Shown piece by piece: positions 10,819 to 25,304 of a stretch of 25,304 nt of DNA. The stretch lies in the IMG/VR virus record IMGVR_UViG_3300027814_000008, one strand, 5' to 3'. A program made the translations under genes and the position numbers. A model generated the notes under the pieces. That model searched no databases. It saw only the letters and a list, made by a program, of their open reading frames with translations, and was not told where the DNA came from. The stretch is from a virus. Every line of letters starts with the position of its first letter. Within the stretch, counting starts at the first letter, position 1.

Positions 10819-11946
10819 ATGTCATTGAAGGTCATAGATGTTCTGAAAAGTAAAGGAGAAGCTTATCTTGAAGAAGCTCTCAATATAAATATAAGACGTT
10901 ATGAAGATAGACTCATTCTCAATTATGATATGATTGCTTCTCCAACACACCATCCAATATCTCAGGAATGCAGGGGATTAATCCTTAGCCCTGGGCCTGA
11001 ATATAAAATCTTGTGCAGATCCTTCAAACGATTTTTAAACTATCCTGAAGACCCCAATAGAGATAAATTCAATATCAATAAAGCTTCATGTTATGAAAAA
11101 ATTGATGGGAGTCTTATAAATATCTATTATGATGGGATAAGATGGCATCCTGCTACAAGGAGTATGGCCTATGCTGAAGGACAATTGTGTTATAATGCCT
11201 TAAAGAATTTTAATATGTTAGTAAGTGAAGTGTTAGGTGGAAAAGTTCATGAGGTAGTAAATCCATTATTCGATAAAAATAATACATATATCTTTGAAGT
11301 AGTTTCCCCAGAGTCCAGAGTTCATGCTATTTATCCCAACAAGGATCTATACTTACTGACCATTAAAAATAAGTTTACTGGGGAAGAATATTTAAATGAT
11401 GTTCCTTTACTGGCAAAAGAACTGGGAGTAAAAGTCCCAAGAATCTATAAATTTGAATCATTGGATCACATAGTTTCAGTAGTGAAAGAATTACCTATGC
11501 TGGAAGAGGGATATGTTTGTTTAATTGACAGAGAGGGCACTGATCCTTGGAGAATCAAAATAAAGAATCCAAAATTTTTAGCATCAGCAGGGATTAGACA
11601 AAGTACAATGGCAAGTCCTAACAATATAATATACCTGGTGATGAATGCAAAATGGGATGATTATTTGGGGATCTTTCCAGAGGATCGGGAACGATTTATG
11701 CCCTATATAAAAGCTTATCATAAATTGATAAAGGAAATCAAACACAACTGGCACATGTATTCTGAAATAAAGAATCCAAAAGAATTTGCCAGTAAGGTAA
11801 AAAGTCTTAGGTGTAATGGTATATTATTTGCCATGTACAATAAGAAAGTGACTATTAATGAAGCAATAGCTGATCTTAGGGAACCTGCTAAGATAAGACT
11901 ATTGAATAAGTATGTGGAGAGATTAGATGACAGAATTGAAATTTGA
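10819..11946 (+). CDS. RNA ligase 1 (T4 RnlA-like, Rnl1 family)
   Basis: SQECRGLILS matches T4 RnlA ALECRGIMFE; adenylation motif I YEKIDGSLINIY matches LTKEDGSLVSTY (K-x-D-G); motif IV-like EGYVCLIDREG...IKIK matches EGYVAVMKDGS...KIK. Confidence 0.75.
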   Translation: MSLKVIDVLKSKGEAYLEEALNINIRRYEDRLILNYDMIASPTHHPISQECRGLILSPGPEYKILCRSFKRFLNYPEDPNRDKFNINKASCYEKIDGSLINIYYDGIRWHPATRSMAYAEGQLCYNALKNFNMLVSEVLGGKVHEVVNPLFDKNNTYIFEVVSPESRVHAIYPNKDLYLLTIKNKFTGEEYLNDVPLLAKELGVKVPRIYKFESLDHIVSVVKELPMLEEGYVCLIDREGTDPWRIKIKNPKFLASAGIRQSTMASPNNIIYLVMNAKWDDYLGIFPEDRERFMPYIKAYHKLIKEIKHNWHMYSEIKNPKEFASKVKSLRCNGILFAMYNKKVTINEAIADLREPAKIRLLNKYVERLDDRIEI

Positions 11947-12214
11947 TAAGACTAAAAAGACTCTATATGAAGGTCTTGGAGTATCTGAAGAACGTTATAT
12001 AGAGCTTAGTGAGTGGTTATATAATGAAATGAAAAAACAAGCTAATGAGCCTGTAATGGATTTTTTGGTTATTATAGAACAGGCATATAATGAATTAGCT
12101 TTAAATGAAGTATTGGCTTTAATGCTGTTGGTTGGAACAATCTCTTTTATTAGCAATGTGGCTAATTTGCCAATTGTTGATGGTATGGATCTTCCACCAG
12201 CAGGTAATTGTTAG
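11927..12214 (+). CDS. hypothetical protein (hydrophobic C-terminal segment)
   Basis: ORF overlapping ligase stop; LALMLLVGTISFISNVANLPIV segment. Confidence 0.45.
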   Translation: MTELKFDKTKKTLYEGLGVSEERYIELSEWLYNEMKKQANEPVMDFLVIIEQAYNELALNEVLALMLLVGTISFISNVANLPIVDGMDLPPAGNC

Positions 12215-12223
12215 GGAGGAAAT

Positions 12224-12526
12224 ATGGTAATAGATGGTGATTGTGGACAACCTACAATAACAGACGTAAGAACAAAATGTGATACATGTTATTGTGATAA
12301 AAAGAAATATACCATTAGGGTATATATTGATAATGGTGTAATATTTGAATATGATGTGGAATCTCCTGAAAAGGTCAGAGAACACGCTGATGCAATTGTA
12401 AAAGAAGGATACCGTCATAATGATGGTAAGACCATCTTTGAACATTATGGGCCTCACAGGATTAAAAAGGTACAATGTAAAGCCTTAATTCCAACAATAT
12501 ATCCAGATAGAATGACAGGTACATGA
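12224..12526 (+). CDS. hypothetical protein
   Basis: SD GGGAGGAAAT upstream of ATG; no recognisable motif. Confidence 0.5.
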   Translation: MVIDGDCGQPTITDVRTKCDTCYCDKKKYTIRVYIDNGVIFEYDVESPEKVREHADAIVKEGYRHNDGKTIFEHYGPHRIKKVQCKALIPTIYPDRMTGT

Positions 12527-12747
12527 AAAATTTAGATTACTACATGAGTCTTGAGTATAAAGTAGAAATCATTACAATCCCTGAAGAAGTAGGGGGTGGA
12601 GTAGTAGCAAGAATCCCTAAATTAGGTAAGTATGCTTTTTTAGGGGACGGAGAGACAATTGAAGAAGCTATGGATAATCTTAATAATATAAAAAGGGAGT
12701 TATTTACTTCATACCTAAAACTTGGAATAGAAATTCCTGAACCATAA
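12523..12747 (+). CDS. HicB-like / UPF0150-family small protein
   Basis: ATGA overlap; YKVEIITIPEEVGGGVVARIPKLGKYAFLGDGETIEEAMDNLNNIKRELF resembles the HicB N-terminal fold (Y.V......DGGY.A..P.LPGC...G.T.EEA..N..EAI). Confidence 0.4.
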   Translation: MKNLDYYMSLEYKVEIITIPEEVGGGVVARIPKLGKYAFLGDGETIEEAMDNLNNIKRELFTSYLKLGIEIPEP

Positions 12748-12750
12748 GAC

Positions 12751-23866: not shown

Positions 23867-23947
23867 TGAGAGAGGGTGGTTTACCAGAACTATCTTTATC
23901 ACTTGTATTAGCTTTATTATTTTTTGTATGGATGTTATTTGGATAAT

Positions 23948-23987
23948 TGAAGATTTTTAGACAGAATACCAATAAATATATAAGGAG
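23948..23987 (+). promoter_or_regulatory. conserved promoter-like element, copy 5 (degenerate, CCAATA)
   Basis: TGAAGATTTTTAGACAGAATACCAATAAATATATAAGGAG upstream of 23994; same TGAAG-N16-CC(G>A)ATA spacing. Confidence 0.4.
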
Positions 23988-23993
23988 ATAAAC

Positions 23994-24251
23994 ATGTATG
24001 GTATAGTTCAACGTTACACAGATATGGGAATAATTGAAGCTCATATCATGGAAGAAGAGGAATTGACTACTTTTCTATGTAATTATGAAAGTCAAGGTTT
24101 CAGCAAAGAATGTTCAAATGTTTATTATAAGTCAGATATGTGGGATGATATCTATGTTGATATTTATTCTACAATTGAAGAAGCACAAGAACAGTTAGTA
24201 GGATTCTTAGAGGCAATAGAACATGATAAGGAGGATTTTAAGAATGAGTAA
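23994..24251 (+). CDS. hypothetical acidic protein
   Basis: Preceded by degenerate copy of conserved promoter-like element + AAGGAG. Confidence 0.45.
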   Translation: MYGIVQRYTDMGIIEAHIMEEEELTTFLCNYESQGFSKECSNVYYKSDMWDDIYVDIYSTIEEAQEQLVGFLEAIEHDKEDFKNE

Positions 24252-25304
24252 ATTGATCTGTGAAGTAAGTAAAATTAAAAATATTACTCCACACCCTAAT
24301 GCTGACCGTTTGGAAATAGCGGAAGTAAAGGGCTGGTTTTGTATTGTACCCAAAGGTGTATACAAAGCTGGTGATCGTGTTCTCTATATTCCTATTGACT
24401 CTATGATCCCTACAGAATTAGCCGAAAAATTCGGTGTATTGAAATATTTGACCAATTATAAGAAGGATAAAGAAGGAAATATACTGGCTGGTCGTGTAAG
24501 GACTTGTAAACTCCGTGGAGAAATCTCTCAGGGATTAGTAGTTGATGTTCTCGATCCCACGTGGAAAGTGGGTAAAGATGTTACTGAGGAACTGGGGATC
24601 TTCAAGTATGAATTACCTGTGAAGGCATCCCTCAGAGGTAAAGCTGCTAAAGCTCATCCTGATTTTCATATTTATACCGATATCCAAAGATGGCAGAATT
24701 ATCCAGACATTCTCCAAGAGGGGGAAGAGGTCATTATGACTGAGAAAATTCACGGAACAAATTTCCGATGTGGTAGACTCTCCAATAGTTCTTGGATAAG
24801 AAACCTTCTCAGTAAAATCCCTGGTCTTAGGAAATTGAATACAGTTTTTTTAGTTGGTAGTCATAGGATGAATCTGAAAAGATCTAAGAAGAACAAATAT
24901 TGGTTGGCAGCTATCAAGGAAAAACTGGATAAGAAAGTTGAACCAGGTGAAGTCCCTTATGGAGAACTTTATGGAGAAGGTATCCAAAAAAAGTTTGACT
25001 ATAACTTGGAAGGAACAAATCTTCGATTCTATGATATCAAAAAGGGCCATAAATACCTGGATTGGGATGAAGTGGTAGCTATATGTAATGAACGTGGTTT
25101 ACAATTAGTCCCAGTTATATATAGGGGGCCTTTCTCTATTGAGAAAATGAAAGAGTTAGGAAGAGGTAAGTCTTCTATAGCTGACCATATAAAAGAGGGC
25201 CTTGTAATTAAGCCTGTAAAGGAACGTTGGGACGAGAACTTGGGTAGAGTGGTACTCAAATATATCAGTCCTGAATATGATGCCTTAAAAGCCGAATTAG
25301 AGGG
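24244..25304 (+). CDS. RNA ligase 2-like (KxHGxN) with N-terminal tRNA-binding OB (Myf/Trbp111-like) domain; 3' partial
   Basis: Not in ORF track (no stop in window). AAGGAGGA SD 8 nt before ATG. N-terminus ICEVSKIKNITPHPNADRLEIAEVKGW is the classic tRNA-binding OB motif (..HPNADKL.V..VD.G). Nucleotidyltransferase motif I TEKIHGTN equals T4 Rnl2 EKIHGTN. Motif IV EGLVIKP matches EGYVLKP. Confidence 0.7.
   Translation, partial: MSKLICEVSKIKNITPHPNADRLEIAEVKGWFCIVPKGVYKAGDRVLYIPIDSMIPTELAEKFGVLKYLTNYKKDKEGNILAGRVRTCKLRGEISQGLVVDVLDPTWKVGKDVTEELGIFKYELPVKASLRGKAAKAHPDFHIYTDIQRWQNYPDILQEGEEVIMTEKIHGTNFRCGRLSNSSWIRNLLSKIPGLRKLNTVFLVGSHRMNLKRSKKNKYWLAAIKEKLDKKVEPGEVPYGELYGEGIQKKFDYNLEGTNLRFYDIKKGHKYLDWDEVVAICNERGLQLVPVIYRGPFSIEKMKELGRGKSSIADHIKEGLVIKPVKERWDENLGRVVLKYISPEYDALKAELE

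Follow-up and report, generated by a model that had tools for sequence, protein, structure and literature searches.

In the 25,304-nt stretch of phage DNA deposited as IMG/VR record IMGVR_UViG_3300027814_000008 (the whole of it being referred to as the window in the following), genes for two ATP-dependent RNA ligases, a tRNA nucleotidyltransferase of the CCA-adding type fused to an HD phosphoesterase domain and an RlaP-family Pol-beta nucleotidyltransferase (NTase) can be recognized, and the region is likely to carry, in dispersed form, an RNA/tRNA-repair kit such as those described for T4 and jumbo phages. The families of these enzymes, their intact catalytic motifs and the conservation of their gene order are established. 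Besides these four, a GatB/YqeY domain protein and a PD-(D/E)xK nuclease-like protein had been singled out in a first-pass annotation, and all six open reading frames (ORFs) indeed lie on the plus strand where they had been placed. The accompanying proposal of an RNA/tRNA-repair kit serving counter-defence is in line with the family assignments, with published kits and with the conserved gene order. In profile searches, the Rnl1, CCA, RlaP and YqeY assignments scored above curated cutoffs, whereas the type of the second ligase had to be revised and the nuclease-like protein stayed below threshold.

The first ligase was proposed to be related to T4 RnlA and can be assigned to the Rnl1 family, as it reaches 60.8 bits against PF09511 (RNA_lig_T4_1; cutoff 28.3, E 2e-16). 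Its best matches in the PDB are the T4 Rnl1 structures 2c5u/5tt6, with motifs I (EKIDGS, residues 93–98, including K94), IV (EGYV, residues 230–233) and V (RIKIKN, residues 245–250) being aligned to the T4 motifs. Due to a score far under the cutoff of the T4 RnlA equivalog model TIGR02308 (54.4 versus 242 bits), the protein is to be considered a divergent member of this family; similarity at the level of RnlA itself, with its C-terminal domain for tRNA specificity, is not reached, as the PDB alignment fades past residue 306, and a search for homologues in IMG/VR gave no match. The corresponding family phrog_562 bears the label 'RNA ligase and tail fiber protein attachment catalyst'. The window ends within the second ligase gene, whose product could be completed to a full length of 372 amino acids (aa) from loci L001 and L013. 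While annotated correctly as RNA ligase, its proposed Rnl2 type is not tenable, since it passes the NCBIfam model TIGR02306 for DRB0094/DraRnl (188 bits, cutoff 151) but fails the Rnl2 model TIGR02307 (42.8 bits, cutoff 197), carries an N-terminal OB domain (PF21189, PHA02142 OB) in place of the Rnl2 C-terminal domain in addition to the RNA_ligase domain PF09414, and is closest to the Naegleria gruberi RNA ligase 5cot in the PDB (E 1e-23), with the lysine of motif I (EKIHGT, K168) being aligned. Hence, it is an Rnl5-type ligase. In common with DraRnl (DRB0094) from Deinococcus radiodurans and NgrRnl from N. gruberi, it shows the N-terminal OB and NTase domains and no C-terminal domain. In contrast to these enzymes, it is phage-encoded and about 30 aa longer.

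The assignment of a CCA-adding enzyme with HD domain is corroborated by Pfam, detecting PolyA_pol, PolyA_pol_RNAbd, tRNA_NucTran2_2 and HD domains, the latter at 25.4 bits with a cutoff of 22, and by the bacterial CCA-adding enzymes 6ibp and 1miv as best PDB matches. The protein shares its head, neck and HD architecture with Escherichia coli Cca, and the head motifs GGAVRD (residues 33–38), D47xD49, RRD (residues 115–117) and EDPNR (residues 159–163) are kept, as are all metal ligands of the HD domain (H254, H276-D277, H298, H330 and D366). It differs from the E. coli enzyme by an overall identity of 28%, by an extra C-terminal extension and by not reaching any NCBIfam CCA equivalog cutoff, the best CCA model giving 213 bits (cutoff 290) and PcnB giving 181 bits (cutoff 306).

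Likewise, the RlaP-like protein clearly belongs to its proposed family, with 78.3 bits against PF10127 (cutoff 23, E 1e-21) and a match to phrog_388 over the whole length (E 2e-60). The NTase motif is represented by G17-S18 and D29-V-D31, and sequence and profile searches against the PDB gave no match. The family, of which NrdC.11 of T4 is a member, has been named for its linkage to RNA ligases, and its proteins add one or two nucleoside monophosphates to the 3'-OH of damaged RNA, with a preference for damaged RNA substrates (PMC12776372). In the window, the gene of the Rnl5-type ligase begins 378 nt 3' of the RlaP gene, with one 85-aa ORF in between. Genes for the CCA enzyme and RlaP are also adjacent or overlapping in more distant IMG/VR phages (loci L004–L008, for example L007 at 8270–12716 and L008 at 8650–12352), where the pair is followed by a radical-SAM/SPASM gene. 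Within the fetched loci of these phages, an RNA ligase was not detected.

Conservation of the repair genes can be deduced from a relative represented by two contigs of SRR31326378 (L012 and L014; 64.8- and 26.8-kb contigs, sampled in part and giving 35.4 kb). Proteins are 50–75% identical between both phages, and the two contigs together continue the same gene order. In L014, the succession of CCA enzyme, small ORFs, 232-aa protein, RlaP, a small ORF and Rnl5-type ligase is kept, including the layout between RlaP and ligase described above, and the Rnl1 gene is found on the adjoining contig (L012). With RlaP being the most conserved of all proteins compared, identities of RlaP, both ligases and the CCA enzyme are comparable to those of primase and helicase (Table 1), which argues for purifying selection on the repair genes. 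As they lack a counterpart in the relative, the YqeY protein, CoaD/CoaE and the vault-like and DnaJ-like proteins described below are to be regarded as accessory. In addition, L014 bears a tRNA-Lys(UUU) gene with encoded CCA at 6157–6232 (Rfam, 70 bits), located between the genes for the 232-aa protein and RlaP, and no tRNA is present at the matching spot of the window. As tRNA-Lys is the classic target of PrrC (PMC12776372), its position within the repair block of the relative fits a tRNA-protection theme.

Table 1. Coordinates and properties of the genes discussed, with protein identity to the homologue in the relative (contigs L012 and L014).
Feature	Coordinates	Strand	Length	Properties	Identity in relative
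Rnl1-family ATP-dependent RNA ligase, divergent	10819–11946	+	375 aa	RNA_lig_T4_1; phrog_562	56% (L012)
Class II tRNA nucleotidyltransferase (CCA-adding type)	18832–20265	+	477 aa	Fused to HD phosphoesterase domain	62% (L014)
YqeY/GatB-C-terminal-like domain protein	21170–21583	+	137 aa (132 aa from ATG at 21185)	phrog_1460	
232-aa protein	21933–22631	+	232 aa	N-terminal PD-(D/E)xK-like motif and conserved C-terminal domain; phrog_12193 (function not annotated)	
RlaP-family Pol-beta nucleotidyltransferase	22787–23866	+	359 aa	RlaP PF10127; phrog_388	75.5% (L014, 6488–7528)
Rnl5-type (DraRnl/NgrRnl) RNA ligase	24244–25304	+		N-terminal OB and C-terminal NTase domain; cut by window end	63% (L014)
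Standalone HD nuclease/phosphodiesterase domain	312–935	+	207 aa	YhaM type, without OB fold	
P-loop nucleoside/nucleotide kinase	979–1644	+	221 aa	dNK/TMPK/NadR-RNK-like; directly 3' of HD gene	
Cys-based dual-specificity-phosphatase-like protein	7408–7923	+	171 aa	HCEAGISRS at 120–128; phrog_5614	58% (L012)
Primase					69%
Helicase					68%

The window comprises about 45 co-directional genes on the plus strand at a GC content of about 33%. Of the 45 plus-strand ORFs taken as genes, 44 were searched with Pfam and 28 with PHROGs, the 53-aa ORF at 22622–22783 being the only one covered by neither. Among 50,697 deposited phage genomes (INPHARED), near-identical DNA was not found. The same phage was, however, recovered in JGI datasets 3300028815 (40-kb contig), 3300027917 and 3300001706, in ENA ERZ27275805 and in contig WOR8_10015924, the name of which hints at sediment as a possible source, and the 40-kb JGI, a 7.2-kb WOR8 and a 6-kb ENA contig extended the DNA by about 13 kb, of which about 9 kb lie upstream and 4.4 kb downstream, bringing the sequence of this phage examined to 38.7 kb in total. 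In the upstream flank, topoisomerase II subunits, a NUDIX protein, an R2K ATP-grasp protein and a ThyA-like protein are encoded, and the downstream flank shows two small ORFs and a gene for another NUDIX protein, followed by more ORFs without assigned function. Searches with Rfam and ARAGORN did not reveal any tRNA or Rfam RNA gene in the window, and the flanks are likewise free of tRNA genes. As the nearest cultured relatives of the helicase (35% identity) are found in Rhizobium phages of about 206 kb, the genome is probably much larger than the part visible, with a size well over 100 kb, and the window probably represents part of the co-directional early/middle region of a large, uncultured phage.

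In line with the first-pass annotation, a T4-type polynucleotide kinase (Pnkp) is not recognizable in the window, as neither AAA_33-clade kinases nor PNK3P/HAD matches were detected by Pfam in 44 of the 45 ORFs; it is also absent from the existing annotations of the flanks and the relative. Moreover, tblastn with the two phage Pnkp proteins encoded beside Rnl1 in Pseudomonas phage vB_PpS_SYP and Vibrio phage D181 did not result in any match in window, flanks or relative, and a hidden Markov model (HMM) of both proteins found nothing among the six-frame ORFs of the same DNA (best E 0.41). Thus, Pnkp is absent from the 38.7 kb examined of this phage and from 35.4 kb of the relative, while a Pnkp-free phage is not established and the earlier observation cannot be extended to the whole genome. 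Since about 39 kb were covered and the genome is probably well over 100 kb in size, the lack of Pnkp cannot carry the interpretation. Most likely, the 5'-kinase needed for repairing 5'-OH breaks is encoded in the unsampled part of the genome.

Two P-loop kinases not noticed in the first-pass annotation are encoded at 979–1644 and 3927–4559. The former directly follows the gene of the standalone HD protein, and this pair, which is also kept in L012, was therefore considered as a split version of the Runella-type HD-Pnk, an end-healing enzyme in which an HD phosphoesterase is fused to a 5'-OH polynucleotide kinase. Compared with the latter, the window encodes the two parts as separate genes, the kinase groups with dNK, TMPK and NadR enzymes instead of polynucleotide kinases, and the HD protein groups with YhaM, all of which speaks against such a split enzyme. 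The kinase family is small, with 17 matches among 1.84 billion representatives; AAA_28, corresponding to the ribosylnicotinamide kinase type of NadR, was assigned to 13 of 16 members and AAA_33 weakly to two, and no Pnk appeared in the Foldseek top 50. The kinase at 3927–4559 was rejected as a hidden RNA kinase, as it passes the equivalog cutoff for dephospho-CoA kinase (CoaE) and its gene overlaps a bona fide coaD gene. Both CoaE and the CoaD (pantetheine-phosphate adenylyltransferase) encoded at 4495–5043 on the same plus strand exceed their NCBIfam equivalog cutoffs and represent the final two steps of coenzyme A synthesis, and neither gene is found in the relative.

As possible substitutes for Pnkp in end-healing, the standalone HD protein, the Cys-phosphatase and the HD part of the CCA enzyme had been put forward. 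Because its metal ligands match those of E. coli Cca, the HD domain of the CCA enzyme is the best-founded candidate among them. For the HD domain of the E. coli enzyme, 2',3'-cyclic phosphodiesterase and phosphatase activities are said to have been found in vitro by Yakunin et al. in 2004. The standalone HD protein resembles YhaM most closely in its fold and has kept the His/Asp metal ligands. It shows, however, only 20% identity to the 3'-5' exonuclease YhaM of Bacillus subtilis and Staphylococcus aureus (PDB 9h3f) and lacks the substrate-binding N-terminal OB domain of the latter, the model consisting of the HD domain alone plus a short N-terminal helical region. It is a candidate RNA 3'-end processor only, and a role in the replication/nucleotide-metabolism block is more likely. 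A ThyA-like gene (L009, 7092–7817, weak Pfam match) is located a few genes 5' of the HD and dNK/TMPK-like kinase genes (312–1644), an order kept in L012, and this set may belong to a pathway for nucleotides or a modified base and not to RNA repair. For the Cys-phosphatase, the DSPc match (E 4e-7) is under the Pfam cutoff, yet weak PDB matches to dual-specificity phosphatases (DSP) align the HCx5R loop, and in L012 the homologous gene is found 5' of Rnl1. While the HCx5R loop is genuine, nothing ties this protein to RNA.

Regarding the two remaining ORFs of the first-pass annotation, the GatB/YqeY protein passes the profile check for PF09424 (38 bits, cutoff 27) and is, nevertheless, an accessory gene and not a conserved partner of the kit. 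The 232-aa protein shows the conserved D..ExK motif of a PD-(D/E)xK nuclease, with E25, D34, E47-x-K49 and Q59 being invariant in its six homologues, and is by this motif a putative member of that superfamily; the sole Pfam match is DUF2161 below threshold (E 0.0066), and a PDB sequence match is absent. A homologue is located between the CCA enzyme and RlaP genes in L014, but those in L015 and L017 adjoin epimerase, glycosyltransferase/sugar-modification and ThyA genes, making the membership of this protein in the RNA-repair kit doubtful.

As to function, we infer from these assignments what the enzymes act on, how the two ligases divide their tasks and that the kit serves counter-defence. Host ribotoxins, such as anticodon nucleases, would cut or erode tRNAs. 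At recessed 3'-OH ends, RlaP would then restore one or two nucleotides, and the class II CCA-adding enzyme would rebuild eroded 3'-CCA ends, with its HD domain possibly clearing 2',3'-cyclic or 3'-phosphates. Finally, Rnl1 would close breaks in tRNA loops and the Rnl5-type ligase 3'-OH/5'-PO4 nicks in base-paired RNA. Several findings weigh against such a repair kit. Its genes are scattered across 14.5 kb, with unrelated ones in between, for example for lysozyme, a DnaJ-like protein and membrane proteins, and do not form a tight operon. The missed NCBIfam equivalog cutoffs imply that sequence does not fix whether the CCA enzyme is CCA-adding, CC-adding, A-adding or poly(A)-forming, and a homologue of YqeY is not encoded in L014. 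Furthermore, neither a 5'-kinase nor a dedicated 3'-phosphatase of the HAD, 2H or calcineurin type was detected in 38.7 kb of the phage and 35 kb of the relative, although Pnkp is encoded about 1 kb from Rnl1 in the two cultured phages vB_PpS_SYP and D181.

The dispersed arrangement could also mean that the six genes merely co-occur in an accessory block without forming a functional module, with some genes, among them those of the YqeY, 232-aa, HD and DSP proteins, being unrelated to RNA repair. This would agree with the many unrelated genes interspersed, with YqeY missing in the relative, with the sugar-modification and ThyA surroundings of other 232-aa homologues and with the grouping of the HD protein and its adjoining kinase with ThyA-like, primase and helicase genes. 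However, it would account less well for a CCA/RlaP pairing that recurs in distant phages, for the succession of CCA enzyme, RlaP and Rnl5-type ligase kept in the relative and for the clustering of the same set in Vibrio phage D181, so that a lack of any module is an alternative to be taken seriously, albeit a rather unlikely one. A mere housekeeping role is very improbable. In that case, the CCA enzyme would mature phage tRNAs, Rnl1 would, in the manner of T4 gp63, chiefly catalyse tail-fibre attachment, and phage RNA would be processed by the remaining enzymes. The label of phrog_562 includes precisely this attachment function, the relative possesses tRNAs in these modules, and CCA enzymes are frequent in tRNA-rich large phages (PMC7824862), but window and flanks are devoid of tRNA genes, CCA is already encoded in the tRNA-Lys of the relative, RlaP favours damaged RNA (PMC12776372) and the active-site motifs of the ligases are intact.

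Unlikely, too, is that the missing Pnkp reflects a kinase-independent kit directed at 5'-phosphate/3'-OH damage, as caused by metal-dependent tRNases such as Toprim, HNH or PIN nucleases, and at 3'-end erosion. No enzymes beyond both ligases, RlaP and the CCA enzyme would then be needed, and any 3'-phosphate would be cleared by the CCA enzyme through its HD domain, by the YhaM-like HD protein or by the Cys-phosphatase. Such specialization would be compatible with the failure of Pfam, tblastn and HMM searches to find any Pnkp-like sequence in window, flanks and relative, with small ORFs without assigned function occupying the Rnl1-adjacent site that holds Pnkp in SYP and D181, with the intact HD ligands of the CCA enzyme and with the conservation of the YhaM-type HD domain and the HCx5R phosphatase in the relative. 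On the other hand, only about 39 kb of the genome are visible in comparison to about 206 kb in the nearest cultured helicase relatives, and the RNA-repair genes of T4 are scattered in its genome. In addition, the YhaM-like HD gene sits in the replication/nucleotide block, and no precedent was found in this analysis for RNA 3' ends being healed by an enzyme of the DSP fold. In its most elaborate form, such a kinase-free path would have the CCA/RlaP pair rebuild 3' ends eroded past CCA, with RlaP restoring the discriminator or recessed nucleotide, the CCA enzyme adding CCA and the HD domain clearing 3'-phosphates. Rnl1 and the Rnl5-type ligase would seal only 5'-phosphate breaks from metal-dependent defence nucleases, replacement tRNA-Lys genes would have been acquired in the block and the YhaM-like HD protein or the Cys-phosphatase would replace the phosphatase of Pnkp, a combination that we consider quite improbable. 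If, however, the complete genome truly lacked a polynucleotide kinase, this would point to repair directed at 5'-phosphate breaks or 3'-end erosion, which would be the more interesting result.

Some further features of the region surround the Rnl1 gene. A scan for promoters gave a number of sites not above that in shuffled sequence and was uninformative, whereas terminator-like sites were found 16 times versus 7.9 expected, the strongest being positioned just 5' of Rnl1. A strong terminator-like hairpin at 10737–10762 is located 3' of a plus-strand gene (8268–10718) encoding an 816-aa protein with a major-vault-protein (MVP) shoulder domain (PF11978, E 4e-27), a Vault_3 repeat and an SPFH/Band_7 match, for which L012 has no counterpart; MVP homologues are known from viruses and bacteria (bioRxiv 10.1101/2023.11.10.566534, 10.1101/872010). 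On the other side of Rnl1, a 74-aa ORF at 12523–12747 on the plus strand weakly resembles HicB-like antitoxins (phrog_497, E 0.0016). In the relative, this ORF is 62% identical and directly 3' of Rnl1, and its product could act as a solo antitoxin against host HicA-type RNases. Between the genes for the DSP phosphatase and Rnl1, L012 shows a tRNA-like element (16705–16776) with a four-base anticodon (gacg) according to ARAGORN and an Rfam tRNA score of 43 bits, overlapping a called 85-aa ORF. Finally, the DnaJ-like protein encoded at 14045–14740 on the plus strand possesses a J domain and a CXXCXGXG zinc-finger domain, and the loci of the relative do not encode a homologue.

Repair kits of jumbo phages have been described to combine Rnl1, Rnl2 or RtcB with RlaP, CCA-adding enzymes, polynucleotide kinases and HAD, HD or calcineurin phosphatases, RlaP being "most prevalent" and the CCA-adding enzyme "next most common", and tRNA-rich large phages often carry CCA enzymes (Iyer et al., 2021, PMC7824862, citing Burroughs & Aravind, 2016). 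In Vibrio phage D181 (OZ196140.1, region at 66–90 kb), an RNA ligase, a CCA enzyme, an RlaP-type NTase, Thg1, Rnl1, Pnk and a phosphoesterase are encoded in a co-directional stretch of 19 kb. Accordingly, the set found here does not deserve to be called expanded, as had been suggested before. Both phages share co-directional genes for Rnl1, a second ligase, a CCA enzyme and an RlaP-type NTase, with CCA, RlaP and Rnl1 being 29–33% identical (RlaP 31.6%). In contrast, Thg1, the T4-type Pnk about 1 kb from Rnl1 and the phosphoesterase of D181 have no homologue in window or flanks, and its second ligase does not match the Rnl5-type enzyme.

The repair set of T4, consisting of RnlA/gp63, Rnl2/gp24.1 and Pnkp/PseT, counters the anticodon nuclease PrrC. 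Both T4 and the window encode RlaP (NrdC.11 in T4) and two ATP-dependent ligases, one of them of the Rnl1 family, all dispersed in early regions and with cleaved tRNA as presumed target. The window differs by the type of the second ligase, by the addition of YqeY and a CCA enzyme with HD domain and by the lack of Pnkp in the sampled DNA. A divergent environmental phage is thus added to the catalogue of phage RNA-repair kits. For choosing proteins to be tested, it is relevant that RlaP is conserved as strongly as the replication core in this lineage, that RlaP and the CCA-adding enzyme co-travel across distant phages and that an Rnl5-type ligase occupies the place held by Rnl2 in T4. Altogether, the window represents a further, divergent example of the described phage RNA-repair kit, its own features being a site near Rnl1 without Pnkp and the replacement of Rnl2 by an Rnl5-type ligase.

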